Shown here: piece after piece, positions 1 to 6,055 of the stretch
How the letters are laid out: each line of letters opens with the position of its first letter
How positions within the stretch are numbered: position 1 is the first letter of the stretch
Assembly: GCF_048403405.1 (NCBI RefSeq)
Contig: NZ_CP183132.1
DNA: 6,055 nucleotides
Reading direction: 5' to 3' (one strand)
Source: Escherichia coli
Lineage (GTDB): Bacteria > Pseudomonadota > Gammaproteobacteria > Enterobacterales > Enterobacteriaceae
Position numbers and translations under genes: made by a program
The notes under the pieces: generated by a model
Told to the model about the DNA's origin: nothing
Databases searched by the model: none
The model's input: the letters and a program-made list of their open reading frames with translations, nothing else

Positions 1-2
1 TC

Positions 3-31
3 TTGAGATCCTTTTTTTCTGCGCGTAATCT
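3..31 (+). promoter_or_regulatory. RNA II (primer RNA) promoter: -35 TTGAGA (3-8), 17-bp spacer, -10 TAATCT (26-31)
   Basis: Seen in sequence: hexamers with 17-bp spacing about 7 nt upstream of the predicted RNA II 5' end. Established knowledge: the region matches, from memory, the RNA II promoter of ColE1/pMB1 replicons (pBR322 ...ttgagatcctttttttctgcgcgtaatctgctgc...). Confidence 0.6.
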
Positions 32-37
32 GCTGCC

Positions 38-144
38 TGTAAACGAAAAAACCGCCTTGCAGGGCGGTTTGATCGAAGGTTAAGTCAGCTTGCAGACTGC
101 TTAACCAGGTAACTGTCTTATGCGAGACGAGTCACCAAAATTGT
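38..144 (-). ncRNA. RNAI: RNA I antisense copy-number control RNA (about 107 nt)
   Basis: Minus-strand transcript complementary to the 5' end of RNA II. Its 3' end coincides with a GC-rich hairpin (ccgccctgcaaggcgg) followed by a T-run on the minus strand at about 46-70, i.e. an intrinsic terminator. Boundaries by analogy with the 108-nt pBR322 RNA I. Confidence 0.7.
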
Positions 145-628
145 TCTTCTAGTGTAGCCGCACTCCGGCAGCCACTTCAAGTACTCTCTAAATATCTCGC
201 ACATGACTTTTACCAATGGCTGCTGCCAGTGGCGCTTTGTGGTGTCTTTTCCGGGTTGGACCCAAGAGAACAGTTACCGGAGAAGGCGCAGCAGTCGGGC
301 TGAACGGGGGGTTCCTGCATACAGCCCAGCCCGGAGCGAACTGCCTAAGTCGCCCCGAGATACCAGAAGACGTGAGCTATGAGAAAGCGCCACGTGTCCC
401 GTAAGGGAGAAAGGCGGAAAAGGTATCCGGTAATCGATATGGCGGGAACGTGGGGGCGCAGGAGGGAGCGATTCACCGGAAACGGTGATGATCTTTAAGC
501 CACGTCGGGTTTCGCCACCGCTGGCGGATTTCATGGTTGAGCCGCAAGGCTCCCACAGATGCACCGAAAAAGTGTCTGTTTTGTGAAGTCCGTCAGGGGG
601 GCGGAGCCTATGGAAAAAGCGCCTCCGG
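39..628 (+). ncRNA. RNAII: RNA II pre-primer transcript of a ColE1-type origin; 3' end (RNA-DNA transition) approximate
   Basis: Start placed at G39 by analogy with the pBR322 RNA II start (GCAAAC; here GTAAAC). The downstream sequence is collinear with the ColE1/pMB1 primer region, including ...gtcaggggggcggagcctatggaaaaa... just before the expected transition point. End not determined precisely. Confidence 0.65.
151..180 (-). promoter_or_regulatory. RNA I promoter: -35 TTGAAG (complement of 175-180), 17-bp spacer, -10 TACACT (complement of 151-156)
   Basis: Seen in sequence on the minus strand; the spacing and hexamers resemble the pBR322 RNA I promoter as I recall it. Confidence 0.55.
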
Positions 629-650
629 CGCGGCCTTTCCCGGGGTTTCG
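585..650 (+). other. oriV: approximate RNA II to DNA transition region of the ColE1-type origin
   Basis: Lies about 550-600 nt downstream of the RNA II start and contains ...ctatggaaaaagcgcctccggcgcggcctttcc..., homologous to the pBR322 origin segment (...tatggaaaaacgccagcaacgcggcc...). No Rep protein gene is present, consistent with host Pol I / RNase H priming. Confidence 0.55.
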
Positions 651-849
651 TTTTTTGCGTACATGTTCTTTCCTGGTTTATCCCCGGGTTCTGTGGATAA
701 CAGGGTTAGCGTTTTTGAGAAAGGAGAGTCCGCTCGCCGCAGCCGAACGACCGAGCGTAGCGAGTCAGTGAGCGAGGAAGCGGAAGAGCGCCTGAACTGG
801 CATTTTCTCCTTACGCATCTGTGCGGCATTTCACACCGGACATGGCGCA

Positions 850-915
850 CTTTTCATACAATCCGCACTGATGCCGAATGGTTAAGCCAGTATACACTCC
901 GCTATCGCTACGTGA
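850..915 (-). other. bom/oriT-like region (origin of transfer with the relaxase nic site), approximate
   Basis: The sequence ...tgatgccgaatggttaagccagtatacactccgctatcgctacgtgactgg... is near-identical to the pBR322 bom region (...tgatgccgcatagttaagccagtatacactcc...) read on the opposite strand. It sits between oriV and rom as in pMB1/ColE1. Exact nic position not determined. Confidence 0.45.
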
Positions 916-1035
916 CTGGGTCAGGGCTTCGCCCCGACACCCCAAAGGTCAACGGCCTGACGCGCCCTGGCGGGCTTGTCTGCTCCCGGCATCCGCTCAC
1001 AGACAAGCTGTGACCGTCTCCGGGAGCTGCATGTG

Positions 1036-1227
1036 TCAGCGGTTTTCACCGTCATCCCCGAAGCGTGCGAGGCAACTGCGGTAAAGCTCATCGGCGTGGT
1101 CGTGAAGCGATTCACAGATGTCTGCCTGTTCATCCGCGTCCAGTTCGTTGAGCTTCTCCAGCAGCGTTAATGTCTGGCCTCTGATGAAGCGGGCCATGTT
1201 AAGGGCGGTTTTTTCCTGTTTGGTCAC
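1036..1227 (-). CDS. rom: Rom/Rop, the RNA I - RNA II pairing modulator (63 aa, GTG start)
   Basis: The minus-strand ORF 1036-1299 contains VTKQEKTALNMARFIRGQTLTLLEKLNELDADEQADICESLHDHADELYRSCLARFGDDGENR, near-identical to pBR322 Rop as I recall it (MTKQEKTALNMARFIRSQ...GDDGENL). The true start is the GTG at complement 1225-1227, as in pBR322, not the upstream ATG of the 87-aa ORF. Confidence 0.9.
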   Translation of the reverse strand: MTKQEKTALNMARFIRGQTLTLLEKLNELDADEQADICESLHDHADELYRSCLARFGDDGENR

Positions 1228-1258
1228 TGATGCCTCCGTGTAAGGGGGGGTTCTGTTC

Positions 1259-1615
1259 ATGGGGGTAATGATACCGATGAAACGCGAGAGGATGCTCACG
1301 ATACGGGTTACTGATGATGAACATGCCCGGTTACTGGAACGCTGTGAGGGTAAACAACTGGCGGTATGGATGCGGCGGGTCTGCCTGGGTGAGCCGGTTG
1401 CCCGTTCCGGGAAGCTGCCGACACTGGCACCGCCGTTACTGCGTCAGCTGGCCGCCATCGGGAATAACCTTAACCAGACAGCGAGGAAGGTGAACAGCGG
1501 GCAGTGGTCTTCCGGTGACCGGGTTCAGGTGGTGGCCGCACTGATGGCCATCGGGGATGAGCTGCGCCGGCTGCGTCTGGCGGTCAGGGAACAGGGGGCG
1601 CGGGATGATAGTTAA
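1259..1615 (+). CDS. mbeC: MbeC/MobC-type relaxosome accessory protein
   Basis: The translation (...MLTIRVTDDEHARLLERCEGKQLAVWMRRVCLGEPVARSGKLPTLAPPLLRQLAAIGNNLNQTARKVNSGQW...) matches ColE1-family MbeC; the truncated homologous stretch follows rop in pBR322. Strong SD (aaggggggg, about 8 nt) precedes ATG 1259; alternative in-frame starts at 1277 and 1292 would give 112 or 107 aa. The stop overlaps the mbeA start. Confidence 0.75.
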   Translation: MGVMIPMKRERMLTIRVTDDEHARLLERCEGKQLAVWMRRVCLGEPVARSGKLPTLAPPLLRQLAAIGNNLNQTARKVNSGQWSSGDRVQVVAALMAIGDELRRLRLAVREQGARDDS

Positions 1616-3170
1616 GTTTCATGCCAGGGGAAAAGGTGGTGGCAGTGGTCCGGTTGATTACCTGCTGGGAAGGGAGCGTAACCGGGAAGGGGCAACGGTG
1701 CTTCAGGGGAATCCGGAAGAGGTCCGGGAACTCATCGATGCCACGCCATTTGCGAAGAAATACACGTCAGGTGTTCTGTCGTTCGCGGAGAAGGAGCTGC
1801 CGCCTGGAGGGCGTGAAAAAGTGATGGCGAGCTTTGAGCGTGTACTGATGCCCGGTCTCGAGAAAAATCAGTACAGCATCCTGTGGGTGGAGCACCAGGA
1901 CAAGGGACGGCTTGAGCTGAATTTTGTCATTCCGAACATGGAGCTACAGACCGGAAAACGCCTCCAGCCGTACTACGACCGGGCAGACAGGCCGAGAATT
2001 GATGCCTGGCAGACGCTGGTGAATCACCATTACGGTCTGCATGACCCCAACGCCCCGGAGAACCGCCGGACGCTGACCCTTCCTGATAACCTGCCGGAAA
2101 CGAAACAGGCGCTTGCTGAGGGCGTCACACGCGGGATAGACGCGCTTTACCATGCCGGAGAGATAAAAGGCCGTCAGGATGTGATTCAGGCGCTCACAGA
2201 GGCGGGGCTTGAAGTGGTCAGGGTGACGCGAAGCAGTATCAGCATTGCAGACCCGAACGGCGGGAGGAATATCAGACTGAAAGGAGCGTTTTATGAGCAA
2301 TCTTTTACAGACGGGCGCGGAGTTCGAGAAAAAGCTGAAAGAGAGAGCCGAATCTACAGAGAAAATGCTGAACGACGAGTTCAGGAAGCTCGAAGAATCT
2401 GTAAACAGGGAACTGACCTCAAACGAATCTTTAATCAGGAACGCTATCAACGACCATACAACAGCCCTGAAAGAACTGCTGGAGAGGTATCAGAAAACGA
2501 CCGTCGATACGATGGACGCGCACTGGAAAACCGTACTGAAAATGAGCGTGAAACGCTGGCTGTGGCTGATTATCGTCTCAGTACTGATGTTTGCCACGAC
2601 CGGGAGTCTGCTGTGGTACCAGGGCATGAAGATAAACGCGAATATGAATATTCTCCGCGAGCAGAAAGAGAGTCTGGAGAAGCTGAACGCGAAGACATGG
2701 GGCGTGCGTTATCACGAGGACAGCAACGGACGTTTTCTGGTGTTGCCGAAGGGGATGAAAGCCGAAACGAACTGGACGAAGGACAACGGCAAACTGAACG
2801 CAGTGAGACTGGTGCAGGAGTGACAGAGCATGACGGAGCTGGAAAGACATTTGCTGAACGCATTAGAGCAACTGCAACAGGACTATATGCAGCGGCTGAA
2901 CGAATGGGAGAACGCCTTCGTGGAATTGCAGAAAATGTTTTCGCTTACGCAACGGGACAACGCGATGCTGAACGGGCGAGTCATGCAGTTGAGTCAGCAG
3001 GTGCAGCACTTGAGCGAGCGGACAGAACGCTTGAGCCAGTTATACAGCGAGAACAGGAGATAAGGGATGAACGGCTGATGCAGGAACGCGAACATGAGTT
3101 ATCTCTGGAGCGGGAGCGTCAGCCGGAAATCCAGGAGCGGACACTGGATGGCCCTTCGCTGGGATGGTGA
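1605..3170 (+). CDS. mbeA: MbeA relaxase (MOB-HEN family), 521 aa
   Basis: N-terminus MIVKFHARGKGGGSGPVDYLLG... contains the catalytic Tyr19 and the HEN motif (H97, E104, N106 in ...WVEHQDKGRLELNFVIPN...) described for ColE1 MbeA. SD agggggcg lies 5-6 nt upstream of ATG 1605. The longer 537-aa ORF from 1557 is an upstream extension running through the end of mbeC. Confidence 0.9.
   Translation: MIVKFHARGKGGGSGPVDYLLGRERNREGATVLQGNPEEVRELIDATPFAKKYTSGVLSFAEKELPPGGREKVMASFERVLMPGLEKNQYSILWVEHQDKGRLELNFVIPNMELQTGKRLQPYYDRADRPRIDAWQTLVNHHYGLHDPNAPENRRTLTLPDNLPETKQALAEGVTRGIDALYHAGEIKGRQDVIQALTEAGLEVVRVTRSSISIADPNGGRNIRLKGAFYEQSFTDGRGVREKAERESRIYRENAERRVQEARRICKQGTDLKRIFNQERYQRPYNSPERTAGEVSENDRRYDGRALENRTENERETLAVADYRLSTDVCHDRESAVVPGHEDKREYEYSPRAERESGEAEREDMGRALSRGQQRTFSGVAEGDESRNELDEGQRQTERSETGAGVTEHDGAGKTFAERIRATATGLYAAAERMGERLRGIAENVFAYATGQRDAERASHAVESAGAALERADRTLEPVIQREQEIRDERLMQEREHELSLERERQPEIQERTLDGPSLGW
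2293..2823 (+). CDS. mbeB: MbeB mobilization protein (176 aa), nested in a different frame inside mbeA
   Basis: ORF with a good SD (aaggag, 6 nt upstream of ATG 2293) and one hydrophobic segment (WLWLIIVSVLMFATTGSLLWY). The nested position inside mbeA matches the ColE1 mbe operon. Confidence 0.8.
   Translation: MSNLLQTGAEFEKKLKERAESTEKMLNDEFRKLEESVNRELTSNESLIRNAINDHTTALKELLERYQKTTVDTMDAHWKTVLKMSVKRWLWLIIVSVLMFATTGSLLWYQGMKINANMNILREQKESLEKLNAKTWGVRYHEDSNGRFLVLPKGMKAETNWTKDNGKLNAVRLVQE
2830..3063 (+). CDS. mbeD: MbeD mobilization/entry-exclusion protein (77 aa), nested inside the 3' part of mbeA
   Basis: ORF immediately after mbeB, with SD aggag about 9 nt upstream of ATG 2830; its position matches mbeD of the ColE1 family. 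Product inferred from gene order and overlap, not from recalled protein sequence. Confidence 0.65.
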   Translation: MTELERHLLNALEQLQQDYMQRLNEWENAFVELQKMFSLTQRDNAMLNGRVMQLSQQVQHLSERTERLSQLYSENRR

Positions 3171-3232
3171 AACCATGAAAAATGACGTGTTCAGTGGATT
3201 AAGGCGGGCTAATGTGGCCTGTAGCATCTGGT

Positions 3233-3250
3233 TGCATAGGTATTCATGCG
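3233..3250. promoter_or_regulatory. Putative ArgR box within the cer accessory region
   Basis: TGCATAGGTATTCATG resembles the ARG-box consensus (TNTGAAT-4W-ATTCANA) with mismatches and lies about 100 bp upstream of the XerC arm, the expected position in cer-type sites. Confidence 0.4.
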
Positions 3251-3346
3251 GTTAAAATTTATCAGGTGCGATCGCGGCAGTTTTTCGGGTGGTTTGTTGC
3301 CATTTTTACCTGTCTGCTGCCGTGATCGCACCGAACGCGTTTTGGC

Positions 3347-3375
3347 GGTGCGTACAATGCGACGTTATGGTAAAT
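3347..3375 (+). other. XerC/XerD recombination core: GGTGCGTACAA (XerC arm) - TGCGACG (central region) - TTATGGTAAAT (XerD arm)
   Basis: Seen in sequence. Both 11-bp arms are identical to those I recall for ColE1 cer; the central region is different and 7 bp long here. Confidence 0.75.
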
Positions 3376-3465
3376 GGAGCGGATTTTCAGGAAGGAGTGA
3401 TACTAACAACTCGAACACTGTGCAAATAATGATTTTTTTAAAATATCGGTAACGATAATAAATTA

Positions 3466-3503
3466 TTTCGTTTTACGCCGGTAATAAATATAATGTAGTT
3501 TCA
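3466..3503 (+). promoter_or_regulatory. Candidate sigma70 promoter for the cargo operon (-10 TATAAT at 3489-3494; weak -35; AT-rich upstream)
   Basis: A perfect TATAAT hexamer lies about 50 nt upstream of ATG 3544 in an AT-rich tract (taataaattatttcgttttacgccggtaataaatataatg). No good -35 at 17-bp spacing; a second TATATA at 3505-3510 is also possible. Confidence 0.3.
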
Positions 3504-3543
3504 GTATATAAAAAAATATATGAGGTGTCTTGTGGGAGCTTTC

Positions 3544-4596
3544 ATGAATCTTCAACAACGTATAAATAAACTACCACAATTATCATCCAGTTTTTCATTT
3601 GGAAAAGATATTGATAATATTCATTCATTTATCTTTAACGAAACTTCTAAAGATAAAATTGAAGATTTACTAAGAAAATGGGTGTCAGGCAATCAGCCCT
3701 GTGTATTTGGTAAATTGGCAAGCAAGAAAATTAAAGGGCTTGATTTCCATTTATCTATTGTAAATAGCCCCCAACTATATAATGATGATGGTCATTTGTT
3801 TGATTTTTTGCGTAATGAAAGAGTTCGTTTTAAAGAACGCGCAAGAAGAGGAGAGGTCAGTGCGCATCTCATTTATTTTATTCATCCACAACTTGCCTTT
3901 GCTCGTCCATCAGAAGAGTTAGTGGACATACAAAAATATATTTGTTCGCTGCATATGCCAGAGTGCTATCCAATAAAAGAGGATGTTATTTATACTGAAA
4001 GCGTACCATTTCAGGATAAAGATGGGCTAAAAATATATAAGGCTGGTGTTAATGTTTTTTACTCTTCTGCTCATAGAACAAGAAATCATGATAGAAGAAT
4101 ACCAGGGGGAATACTTATTTCTGTAAATGCCCCGGGGCATTTTATGAGGCTGGCGATAGAAAAAGGTTTCTATAAAGATCAAGAACAAGCGTTAGCGGAT
4201 ATTCGTAACATGACTATTCAGTCTGTTGGTAAGGGTGGGTATTCACATCCGGAAGGGATTTCTACAACATGGCATTCAGAATCTAATTTGGATCGTTTTG
4301 GATGCCCAGTGCACACCGGTAATAGTTCTTATTACAGCGGTTTTTATCATACTGATGTATTAATTCCAGGAGAATTAACTAAGGATGAAAGATTGCTCCA
4401 TGAAATAGAAAATAGTGATCCAATGATCTTCAACTGGAATGTATTGTTTTATGTTTCATTAGAAGAGTTTCCTATAGATGATCCTTATTATGGAGAGTTT
4501 ATTGGTATTCCTGTAGATGATGCATCTATGTTTTTTAACTCCTTTCAACCAAGGAAATTTGAAAACAAACCCCTTTATGAGAAAGAGGATGATTAA
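3544..4596 (+). CDS. Hypothetical soluble protein, 350 aa, family not recognised (first gene of the AT-rich cargo operon)
   Basis: Long ORF (track 3520-4596) in AT-rich DNA. ATG 3544 is preferred over ATG 3520 because of the SD gggag 5 nt upstream. No signal peptide or hydrophobic helices evident. Conserved-looking segments include NAPGHFMRLAIEKGFY and DRFGCPVHTGNSSYYSGFYHTDVLIPGE. Confidence 0.75.
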   Translation: MNLQQRINKLPQLSSSFSFGKDIDNIHSFIFNETSKDKIEDLLRKWVSGNQPCVFGKLASKKIKGLDFHLSIVNSPQLYNDDGHLFDFLRNERVRFKERARRGEVSAHLIYFIHPQLAFARPSEELVDIQKYICSLHMPECYPIKEDVIYTESVPFQDKDGLKIYKAGVNVFYSSAHRTRNHDRRIPGGILISVNAPGHFMRLAIEKGFYKDQEQALADIRNMTIQSVGKGGYSHPEGISTTWHSESNLDRFGCPVHTGNSSYYSGFYHTDVLIPGELTKDERLLHEIENSDPMIFNWNVLFYVSLEEFPIDDPYYGEFIGIPVDDASMFFNSFQPRKFENKPLYEKEDD

Positions 4597-4597
4597 T

Positions 4598-5464
4598 ATG
4601 ATTAAAGGAATGCTTTTTGCTTTTTTAGCAGCGTTCTCATGGGGGGCAGCTATCGTAATGAGCAAAAAAGGAGTTGAAGAACTAGATGCCGGAGGGGTGT
4701 TTTTCTGGCAGATTTGTAGTGCAGTAATACTATCTTGGATAGTTCTTTTTATAAAAAGAAAAAAACTCCCATTAAACTCAAAAGCGATACTTGCTTATGC
4801 GACAGGCGTTTTTGAACCATTCTTAGCGTATACTTTTACACTCTACGGACTTTATTTTATTTCAGCAGGAAGCGCATCAATTATTTTTTCACTTGAATCA
4901 GTGTTTATATTGGTGTTGTCTGTTCTTATTTGCTCAGTTAAAATTAATTCCCCGCAATATTTTATATTGTTCCTTATAGGTGCAATTGTTGGCAGTATTT
5001 TGGTAGCCTTGCCAGACATCAGTAATGGATCGAATAATATTGTTGGATATTGTCTTGTTGTTGCCGGTGTGTTATCGGCAGCATTTTATGTTGTTATATC
5101 GTCTCGCCTTATTAAATCGTTTGAGCCTATCACATTATTGAGCGGACAGTTGACATTCTCCCTTATACTGTCATCGCTCTTTATTTTTATATCTAAATCA
5201 TCAATTTATCTTCCGTTGGAATCCGTGATTATTGTTTTTTCATCTGGAATATTACAATATTTTTTAGCTTTTTGTTTTTACTTGAACTCCTTGCGTTGGC
5301 TCCCAGTTCATTTGGCAGGGATAATGTTGTACTTTATTCCGCTAGTTGCATTATTTTTGTCATGGTTGTTTTTGGATGAACAATTCACATTCTTACAGGG
5401 GGTAGGATTTATTGTAACTGTGCTAAGTGTATATTTTCTTAACAGAAAATACTCAGAGGAGTAA
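4598..5464 (+). CDS. DMT-superfamily (EamA-like) integral membrane transporter, 288 aa, about 10 predicted TM helices
   Basis: About ten hydrophobic segments of 18-23 residues in a 5+5 arrangement, with an N-terminal LFAFLAAFSWGAAIVMSKKG typical of EamA-domain proteins. Start ATG 4598 has SD aagagga 8 nt upstream and lies 2 nt after the stop of the upstream gene; the track ORF from 4517 is an N-terminal over-extension. Confidence 0.8.
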   Translation: MIKGMLFAFLAAFSWGAAIVMSKKGVEELDAGGVFFWQICSAVILSWIVLFIKRKKLPLNSKAILAYATGVFEPFLAYTFTLYGLYFISAGSASIIFSLESVFILVLSVLICSVKINSPQYFILFLIGAIVGSILVALPDISNGSNNIVGYCLVVAGVLSAAFYVVISSRLIKSFEPITLLSGQLTFSLILSSLFIFISKSSIYLPLESVIIVFSSGILQYFLAFCFYLNSLRWLPVHLAGIMLYFIPLVALFLSWLFLDEQFTFLQGVGFIVTVLSVYFLNRKYSEE

Positions 5465-5633
5465 CATTCTGTTCAGGATTGCCCCCCGGCCTCCATCGAT
5501 ACCGTGCCAAATGCACGTAAAAAACGGGAGCGTTTCTGGTGTCGGAATGTAACCAAGGGGGTCAGAGGCGCGCTAAAACGCTCTCAGGGGAGTCAAATAG
5601 AGACGTTTGTAACAAAAAGATCAAAGGATCCTC

Positions 5634-5662
5634 TTGAGATCCTTTTTTTCTGCGCGTAATCT
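5634..5662 (+). promoter_or_regulatory. RNA II promoter, second copy of 3-31 in the terminal overlap
   Basis: Identical sequence at offset 5631. This copy shows the true context on the circle: the promoter lies about 170 bp downstream of the cargo transporter gene. Confidence 0.6.
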
Positions 5663-5668
5663 GCTGCC

Positions 5669-5775
5669 TGTAAACGAAAAAACCGCCTTGCAGGGCGGTT
5701 TGATCGAAGGTTAAGTCAGCTTGCAGACTGCTTAACCAGGTAACTGTCTTATGCGAGACGAGTCACCAAAATTGT
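5669..5775 (-). ncRNA. RNAI: RNA I, second copy of 38-144 in the terminal overlap
   Basis: Identical sequence at offset 5631. Confidence 0.7.
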
Positions 5776-6055
5776 TCTTCTAGTGTAGCCGCACTCCGGC
5801 AGCCACTTCAAGTACTCTCTAAATATCTCGCACATGACTTTTACCAATGGCTGCTGCCAGTGGCGCTTTGTGGTGTCTTTTCCGGGTTGGACCCAAGAGA
5901 ACAGTTACCGGAGAAGGCGCAGCAGTCGGGCTGAACGGGGGGTTCCTGCATACAGCCCAGCCCGGAGCGAACTGCCTAAGTCGCCCCGAGATACCAGAAG
6001 ACGTGAGCTATGAGAAAGCGCCACGTGTCCCGTAAGGGAGAAAGGCGGAAAAGGT
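5670..6055 (+). ncRNA. RNAII: RNA II, 5' part, second copy of 39-424 truncated by the window end
   Basis: Identical sequence at offset 5631. Confidence 0.65.

Follow-up and report, generated by a model that had tools for sequence, protein, structure and literature searches.

An apparently hybrid Xer locus at the left junction of an AT-rich cargo in the ColE1-like plasmid pJJ1886-3

The window analyzed here, a stretch of 6,055 nucleotides of Escherichia coli DNA, is a circular plasmid read past its origin: positions 1-424 recur as 5632-6055, and the unit of 5,631 bp is 100% identical to pJJ1886-3 (CP006787 / NC_022662.1) from the E. coli ST131 strain JJ1886. The plasmid is known in the literature as a cryptic MOBP5/ColE1-like plasmid (PMC4270462, PMC5841774), with an RNAI/II region nearest to that of pColD-157 (PMC5841774; PMC4270462). 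Its backbone contains RNAI, rop, mbeC (MobC), a relaxase gene, mbeB, mbeD and a cer locus. Beyond the cer locus, on the plus strand, lie two cargo genes: an open reading frame (ORF) at 3544-4596 for a 350-amino-acid protein of an uncharacterised family and, with its ATG 1 nt past the stop codon of the first gene, a second at 4598-5464 for a 288-amino-acid transporter of the EamA/DMT family. We were concerned with the left junction of this cargo, 3376-3543, which lies between the Xer core of cer and the first cargo gene. The comparisons described below indicate that the Xer locus itself is a hybrid of two site lineages, and that the foreign cassette begins some 25 nt beyond it.

The Xer core (3347-3375, plus strand) consists of an XerC arm, GGTGCGTACAA (3347-3357), a 7-bp central region, TGCGACG (3358-3364), and an XerD arm, TTATGGTAAAT (3365-3375), both arms having 0 mismatches to the consensus. 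This is the sole arm pair in the window, and its layout is that of a cer-type site, with 11-nt arms, a central region in the range of 6-8 bp and, on the XerC side, the ~180 bp of accessory sequence homologous to ColE1 cer. The accessory region (3171-3346, plus strand) is of ColE1 type: over 170 nt compared, it matches the ColE1-like plasmid L004 at 156/170 positions (92%) and L002 at 158/170 (93%), against 55-57% identity to ColE2-type loci. It includes the hexamers TTGCAT (3232-3237) and TAAAAT (3253-3258), separated by a 15-bp spacer, which we take to be Pcer-like, and presumably the Rcd stem-loop at 3265-3332, where the two halves of an inverted repeat (3265-3280 and 3317-3332) are 94% complementary. 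The same central region, TGCGACG, occurs in the ColE1-type plasmid L031 and in the second replicon of the record L008, and L002 has TGTGACG. Central regions differ in length, with 7 bp in the window, 8 bp in ColE1 and 6 bp in ColE2-type loci, and Xer sites with 6-, 7- and 8-bp spacers thus coexist and apparently recombine.

A side observation concerns this last record. L008 (NZ_CP069469.1) is a 9,269-bp linear record that combines the cargo plasmid with a second ColE1-like replicon bearing a nickel-transporter cargo, with Xer cores on the minus strand at 1173 and 6792. Of 3,457 bases in the cargo-plasmid part, only 3 depart from the window, all of them in the XerC arm, which reads GGTGCGCGTAA in place of GGTGCGTACAA and so matches the arm of the other replicon's cer. 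It represents a conversion patch in the Xer core or else an artefact of assembly or polishing.

We searched the junction regions against 72,556 plasmids. A sequence-only reading of this DNA had proposed that cargo-free ColE1 plasmids would define the exact breakpoints, and this comparison placed the backbone breakpoint at 3375|3376. Cargo-free homology ends at 3375 in 43/57 sampled records and within 3375-3381 in 50/57; in 3 records it goes no further than 3358, where the XerC arm ends. The ColE1-like plasmid L004 aligns to 1-3375 and from 5615 onwards alone. Three sampled records, all of them ColE2-type plasmids, match across the junction at 3337-3396.

The 25 nt that follow the XerD arm (3376-3400, plus strand, G+C 0.52), GGAGCGGATTTTCAGGAAGGAGTGA, align with GGATCGGGTTTTCGGGAAGGATCGA of ColE2-type, Col156-type and IncF Xer loci. 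Identity is 20/25 to the ColE2-type locus L003, 19/25 to both the Col156-type L027 and the IncF L028, and 18/25 to L010; the flanks of ColE1-type plasmids score 4/25 (L004), 5/25 (L018) and 11/25 (L002). Thus the right 25 nt are 76-80% identical to ColE2-type flanks versus 16-44% for ColE1-type flanks. The chance of at least 20/25 matches at a fixed register is ~1e-8, and Fisher tests of the discordance between left and right gave p values of 2.7e-15 and 0.014. A ColE2-type locus with such a flank is present in 1,344 plasmid records, where homology runs 84-118 nt beyond the XerD arm. In the window, similarity to the ColE2-type flank stops at 3400, where the G+C content begins to fall.

The sequences to the left and right of the core therefore derive from different site lineages. 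With 92-93% identity to ColE1-type sequence on the left and 76-80% to ColE2-type sequence over the 25 nt on the right, the window's Xer locus is best read as a hybrid, with a left side of ColE1 type and a right flank of ColE2/Col156/IncF type. The segment 3376-3400 would then be left over from a ColE2/Col156/IncF-type locus, in which it followed the XerD arm, and is probably an inert spacer today. By the same comparisons, 3375|3376 would mark a change of plasmid lineage and not the start of foreign DNA, and the AT-rich cassette would start at ~3401. The earlier view of 3376-3543 as the left edge of the cargo needs amending to this extent: AT-rich foreign cargo does lie near the XerD arm, but foreign DNA starts only at ~3400|3401, and 3376-3400 is Xer flank.

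The base composition fits these boundaries. G+C is 0.551 in the backbone (1-3375), 0.52 in 3376-3400 and 0.28 in 3401-3543, and each cargo gene is at ~0.35. A maximum-likelihood fit puts the change point at 3424, and 3400 does almost equally well, so the sharp drop that had been noted within ~50 bp after the XerD arm, from 0.551 to 0.28, is borne out.

The position of the crossover can be narrowed by the sequence of the core. The two kinds of site are identical over the 11 nt of the XerC arm and over 14 nt made up of the XerD arm and the following GGA; they differ in the central region, which is TGCGACG in the window, as in the ColE1-type L031 and L008, versus CGGGAG in ColE2-type loci. A ColE1-type central region joined to a ColE2-type flank places the crossover within the 14 identical nucleotides. 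A second, independent hybrid is provided by a pair of kdgT plasmids, NZ_CP095536.1 (L029) and NZ_AP022092.1. The accessory region and XerC arm of L029, GGTGCGCGCAA, are 93.5% identical to those of the ColE1-type 4,593-bp plasmids (L031), whose homology to the L029-type hybrid again stops exactly at the XerD arm. In L029 the central region is CGGGAG, and the next 60 nt are 82-88% ColE2-type. This pattern places the crossover in L029 where the XerC arm meets the central region.

In both hybrids, then, the crossover falls in the core, to a resolution limited by the identical arms, and the two would map to the XerD side (window) and the XerC side (L029) of the central region, the positions of cleavage. 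During Xer recombination, top-strand exchange by XerC takes place where the central region borders the XerC arm, and XerD works at the opposite border; at cer, processing of the Holliday junctions that XerC generates need not involve XerD. We infer that hybrids with crossovers at both edges of the central region are what Xer chemistry predicts, and that homologous recombination would hardly yield them with 11-14 nt of identity.

Downstream of the flank remnant lies the AT-rich leader of the cargo operon (3401-3543, plus strand, 143 bp, G+C 0.28). Its motifs make it probable that the cassette has its own promoter and ribosome-binding site here: a candidate -10 hexamer, TATAAT, at 3489-3494 on the plus strand, and a Shine-Dalgarno sequence, GGGAG, at 3534-3538 on the same strand, which precedes the ATG at 3544 (also the start in RefSeq). 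The sequence-only reading had called TATAAT the only promoter-like hexamer for the operon. The hexamer is present and is the best -10, but it is not the only one, as TAAAAT at 3439, TAAATT at 3459 and TAATGT at 3491 also fit TAnnnT. It has no -35 hexamer of at least 4/6 at a spacing of 16-18 bp, the best being TTTCGT (2/6), and no extended -10 TGn. Because its best -35 is so poor, the TATAAT site is missing from a consensus promoter scan, which lists an alternative candidate on the plus strand, CTAACA-16-AATAAT at 3403-3430. Promoter-like sites across 3150-5750 number 9 versus 8.9 expected from shuffles, which is the level of chance. It is also possible that the cargo is transcribed by read-through from the co-directional mob genes and the putative Pcer. 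No unusual RNA fold is predicted in this region, 3496-3560 being no better than shuffles (z = +0.4). A riboswitch or other known RNA in 3376-3543 was considered and rejected, since Rfam at E up to 1 returned RNAI alone.

On the other side of the cargo, 5465-5631 had been treated as a single right junction; this does not hold, as it contains a separate element that is found on other plasmids too. The AT-rich cassette ends at ~5465-5473, a few bases past the EamA stop codon, and the right-hand G+C change point is 5474. From there, a 129-bp element (5474-5602, G+C 0.56), distinct from the cargo genes, is 94.6% identical to a segment of the enterotoxigenic E. coli (ETEC)-type IncF plasmid NZ_CP035820.1 (L006 6001-6130) and 84% identical to one of the Col(MP18) plasmid L007, in both cases without cargo genes; in 5,426 complete E. 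coli genomes it was confined to plasmids. The next 12 bp, ACGTTTGTAACA (5603-5614), match none of the compared sequences, as L006 homology stops at 5602 and ColE1-type homology begins at 5615. The ColE1 backbone, recognised by homology to cargo-free plasmids, resumes on the plus strand at 5615-5662 with the hexamers TTGAGA (5634-5639) and TAATCT (5657-5662), which, from what is known of pMB1/ColE1 origins, we take to be the RNAII promoter; it is followed by RNAI, an Rfam match on the minus strand at 5674-5774.

Unlike the left edge, the right edge of the cargo is ragged among plasmids. Cargo-free homology starts at 5615 in 19/58 sampled records, at 5623 in 17 and within 5614-5627 for most others. 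These resumption points lie 7-20 bp upstream of the RNAII -35 hexamer, 5615 being 19 bp before it, and the ragged boundary at 5614-5627 therefore fits joins that are not site-specific and are limited by the RNAII promoter. Between the equivalents of 3375 and 5615, L004 carries exc, cea and imm, so that the cargo of the window fills the classical colicin slot. We also observed that in NZ_CP035820.1 (L006 5233-6130) an insertion sequence (IS), IS1, that has no target duplication borders the 129-bp element with its right end at 5473|5474, the end of the cassette in the window, and that an aph(3')-Ia derivative of the plasmid (L005) breaks 1 nt from the same point.

We think it reasonably probable, on the basis of these alignments, that the left junction has two layers: recombination of the Xer core with a heterologous site at 3375|3376, and then an illegitimate join at 3400|3401. 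The first step would be an exchange, catalysed by XerCD, in which a ColE1-type cer recombined with a heterologous Xer site carried by another plasmid of the same cell, through a cointegrate or Holliday junction intermediate, with the crossover on the XerD side of the central region. Its product would have retained the ColE1-type accessory sequences, XerC arm and central region, joined through the conserved XerD arm to a ColE2/Col156/IncF-type flank of which 25 nt survive. In the second step, an illegitimate join at 3400|3401, without a recognisable site, would have linked this flank remnant to the AT-rich cassette of 143-bp leader, 350-amino-acid gene and EamA exporter gene. As a unit, this cassette is found on other plasmids too, and on Edwardsiella chromosomes. 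The right joins (~5465-5473, 5602|5603 and 5614|5615) would likewise be illegitimate, ending just upstream of the RNAII promoter. ColE1-type and ColE2/Col156/IncF-type loci co-reside in many E. coli strains; in JJ1886 itself, the Col156-type plasmid pJJ1886-2 co-resides with pJJ1886-3 (PMC4270462; table in PMC7276700). The sequence-only reading had offered recombination at cer as a speculation compatible with the position of the junction. The hybrid locus and the second hybrid support this at 3375|3376; the remaining joins have no site and are illegitimate or unexplained. Xer recombination thus accounts for the discontinuity at 3375|3376 only.

Several points weigh against this two-step scheme. 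The flank remnant is just 25 nt long and 76-80% identical to the sampled ColE2-type flanks, among which no closer donor was found. A sharp end of homology at the XerD arm is expected from the conservation of this arm in all cer-like sites, and sharpness alone is no proof of Xer recombination. Sites of the cer type strongly favour intramolecular resolution, and intermolecular events are rare. No reciprocal product or cointegrate was seen among the sampled matches. Xer recombination leaves the position of the cassette, 25 nt from the arm, unexplained. Finally, the putative promoter that we assign to the leader has a -35 of only 2/6 in a region where promoter-like sites are not enriched.

Some of the same features would suit a purely illegitimate acquisition, in which the boundaries were set by selection for an intact cer and origin, and the 25-nt ColE2-like flank was ancestral. 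The right boundary, 19 bp upstream of the RNAII -35 and ragged among plasmids, is what such a process would leave; no site marks the joins at 3400|3401 and 5473|5474; and the sharp left end could reflect the conservation of the XerD arm. We nevertheless regard this explanation as unlikely. An ancestral flank should bring matching accessory sequences with it, whereas here the left is 92% ColE1-type and the right 80% ColE2-type, and the close ColE1-type relatives (L002, L004, L018, L031 and the second replicon of L008) have unrelated flanks. In addition, the second hybrid crosses over at exactly the other edge of the central region.

A further possibility is that the two co-resident plasmids recombined within the conserved 28-30-bp core by a RecA-dependent or short-homology route, with no catalysis by XerCD. 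The identity of the catalyst cannot be read from a sequence, and the two site types do share the 11-nt XerC arm and the 14 nt of XerD arm plus GGA on which such an exchange could act. However, 11-14 nt is below the usual length for efficient RecA-dependent exchange in E. coli, and two independent hybrids cross over at the XerC and XerD cleavage points. We therefore consider this route improbable. Least probable of all is delivery by an IS or transposon that later lost its ends through decay or deletion, such as in an IS1-mediated rearrangement: it could draw on the IS1 end at 5473|5474 in NZ_CP035820.1 and on the aph(3')-Ia derivative that breaks 1 nt away, but the IS1 coincidence is at the right junction and not in 3376-3543, and neither IS ends nor transposase remnants nor target duplications are present in the window.

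The earlier statement that the junctions show no inverted repeats, target-site duplications or integrase/transposase remnants was upheld by repeat, k-mer, IS-end and ORF checks, all of which were negative. No repeat family and no inverted or direct repeat brackets the cargo, and there is no transposase or integrase ORF in the window. The search for short repeats that had been proposed, run between 3366-3440 and 5450-5640, gave a longest match of 7 nt, the level expected by chance: 7-nt direct and inverted k-mers were reached by 146 and 129 of 300 shuffles, respectively. Comparison of 11 IS/transposon termini with the junctions gave nothing above multiple-testing noise. An internal match to the IS10 inverted repeat in a poly-A/T tract was dismissed as noise (z 5.3, 2/300 shuffles, 66 tests), and a resemblance of 3397-3411 to the left inverted repeat of IS1 (IRL; 12/15 by eye) failed the shuffle test. 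Neither of the findings named beforehand as fatal to the sequence-only reading, homologous plasmids with the same flank and no breakpoint or IS/transposon ends that define another mechanism, was encountered.

We also considered two other arrangements for the cassette. A pdif-module or IMEX model, with a second Xer site at the right junction, was rejected, as neither single-arm nor paired-arm scans found one: no second Xer core is present in the window at up to 3 mismatches per arm, nor at up to 6 of 22 arm positions with spacers of 6-8 bp. The second arrangement was a precise insertion of the cassette into a pre-existing flank. When 3376-3400 is joined to 5474 onwards, the product matches the ColE2-type flank for ~36 nt (30/36) and not beyond. 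The corresponding empty site, GGAGCGGATTTTCAGGAAGGAGTGA followed by CAGGATTGCCCCCC, was absent from PLSDB, and a metagenome scan returned one match, a chance one inside a coding region. We did not adopt this model.

All cargo-bearing relatives share an identical junction, including a diverged 5,875-bp lineage that, over 3330-3560, differs from the window only by two homopolymer lengths and one single-nucleotide polymorphism. As every cargo-bearing plasmid has the same junction, a single acquisition is implied.

How does this junction compare with known systems? A model of Xer/oriT recombination was reportedly proposed by Tran et al. in 2012 for qnrB19 plasmids, and by Zakharova et al. in 2002 for pECL18/pKPN2. 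Recombination at cer/Xer and oriT has indeed already been suggested for the evolution of ColE1-like plasmids, according to the passages that cite it in PMC8683028 and PMC6764390. As far as those passages describe the model, the window shares with it a small ColE1-like plasmid, a module boundary at the Xer core and an exchange deduced from sequence mosaics. It differs in that the partner is a ColE2/Col156/IncF-type locus, from another replicon family, in the 25-nt remnant, and in having its other cargo boundary away from oriT. Summers and Sherratt are said to have described laboratory-selected hybrids between ColE1 cer and CloDF13 parB. Like these, the window has an accessory region and a right flank from different parents and a crossover in the core, with a central region that can come from either; unlike them, the window and L029 are of natural origin and old, with a flank that shares only ~80% identity with extant relatives, and underwent further rearrangement afterwards.

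Acinetobacter pdif modules are flanked by XerC/D sites, and Xer recombination is thought to move their cargo between plasmids (PMC7399989). On that description, the window resembles them in that its cargo adjoins a XerC/XerD site, but it has one Xer core where pdif modules have two bracketing sites. With the XerD arm of cer on one side and the RNAII promoter on the other, the cargo sits in the position of the colicin slot of ColE1, ColK, ColN and ColD, which is occupied by exc, cea and imm in L004 and by the colicin N operon in L017; unlike in colicin plasmids, the slot in the window holds an AT-rich pair of genes, for an unknown enzyme and a DMT exporter, together with fragments of other plasmids.

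The plasmid and the route of exchange at Xer sites were thus already known, and what is new is a well-resolved natural example. Its specific features are the partner from the ColE2/Col156/IncF family, the survival of 25 nt of the flank, and the mirror-image hybrid in another plasmid; no description of the junction architecture or of the hybrid Xer locus of pJJ1886-3 was found in the published papers examined. Although classed as cryptic, pJJ1886-3 is one of the small plasmids met most often in clinical E. coli. The mapped crossovers provide a natural example of module exchange at Xer sites, the same route that has been invoked for qnrB19 and other resistance genes, and suggest that ColE1-type and ColE2/Col156/IncF-type Xer sites can be partners. 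For engineering or tracing of these plasmids, the breakpoints are 3375|3376, 3400|3401, ~5465-5473, 5602|5603 and 5614|5615. A broader idea can be put forward only tentatively, and we hold it to be somewhat doubtful: that the Xer core is a recurrent docking point across replicon families, at which XerCD swaps XerD-side DNA between ColE1-type and ColE2/Col156/IncF-type loci. If it were true, single Xer sites, and not only pairs of the pdif kind, would be a general route for cargo between enterobacterial plasmids, small and large, that are otherwise non-homologous.

Turning to the cargo itself, the second gene is assigned to the EamA family by Pfam (E = 4.6e-44) and is annotated in RefSeq as a DMT family transporter. 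The 350-amino-acid protein has no Pfam match, including to YqcI/YcgG, and nor do 48 members of its family at E up to 1; a profile search found no PDB relative. Its family has an invariant cysteine, Cys53, in a QPCxFG motif. In the YqcI/YcgG heme-dependent N-hydroxylases, an N-terminal cysteine thiolate is the heme ligand, Cys44 in AglA (PMC12866846). The gene for the 350-amino-acid protein is directly followed by an EamA gene in 5/5 contexts of relatives examined, and the cargo is possibly a pair for the production and export of a small molecule. In each relative's context the first gene is preceded by a leader that is AT-rich too, yet these leaders have no DNA similarity to 3401-3543.

The closest diverged pair, at 76% amino-acid identity, is on a small Salmonella plasmid with a Rep of the PF03090 family and MOBQ mobilization (L010/L011, pair at 4743-6679). 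This pair lies on the XerC side of the plasmid's own Xer site (4378-4426, minus strand), 316 bp from it and reading away, and occupies the slot of the colicin genes in ColE2-type plasmids. The same type of cargo is therefore found beside Xer sites in two unrelated replicon families. On E. coli large-plasmid contigs the gene pair is 75% identical, and on Edwardsiella chromosomes it is 62-63% identical, in a low-G+C island next to ybjL. In Edwardsiella hoshinae the pair (L021 4983-6916; also L015) is downstream of grxA-ybjM-ybjL, at a G+C of 0.34-0.47 versus ~0.6 in the flanks. Because of this lower-G+C island, the pair looks horizontally acquired in Edwardsiella too. A scan of species-representative genomes for the donor of the cassette returned only plasmid copies that are 100% identical and distant chromosomal homologues, the latter in Edwardsiella hoshinae (63%) and in metagenome-assembled genomes (53-59%).

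pJJ1886-3 is carried by ~120/5,426 complete E. coli genomes; apart from NC_022662.1, more than 100 records from E. coli, Salmonella, Klebsiella and Shigella are identical to it. Segments 99.7-100% identical to the plasmid also occur on short contigs (L019, L020, L023, L024) labelled Streptococcus parasanguinis, Pseudomonas sp. A-RE-19 and Rhizobium wenxiniae; most likely these are E. coli plasmid contamination of the assemblies and not true hosts. The lineage of 5,872-5,875 bp (L001, CP098994.1), mostly from poultry, is ~99% identical to the window plasmid outside the left end of cer, where ~296 bp (L001 365-660) replace 53 bp of the window (3176-3228). Finally, kanamycin-resistance plasmids of 5,310 bp from E. 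coli and Salmonella (L005, NZ_CP018120.1) are a derivative of the window plasmid in which a 1,327-bp aph(3')-Ia segment (L005 2747-4073) replaces 3827-5474, and with it most of the cargo. The left junction is preserved in them, as are 283 bp at the start of the cargo gene, and they match the 'X plasmids' of PMC5841774.

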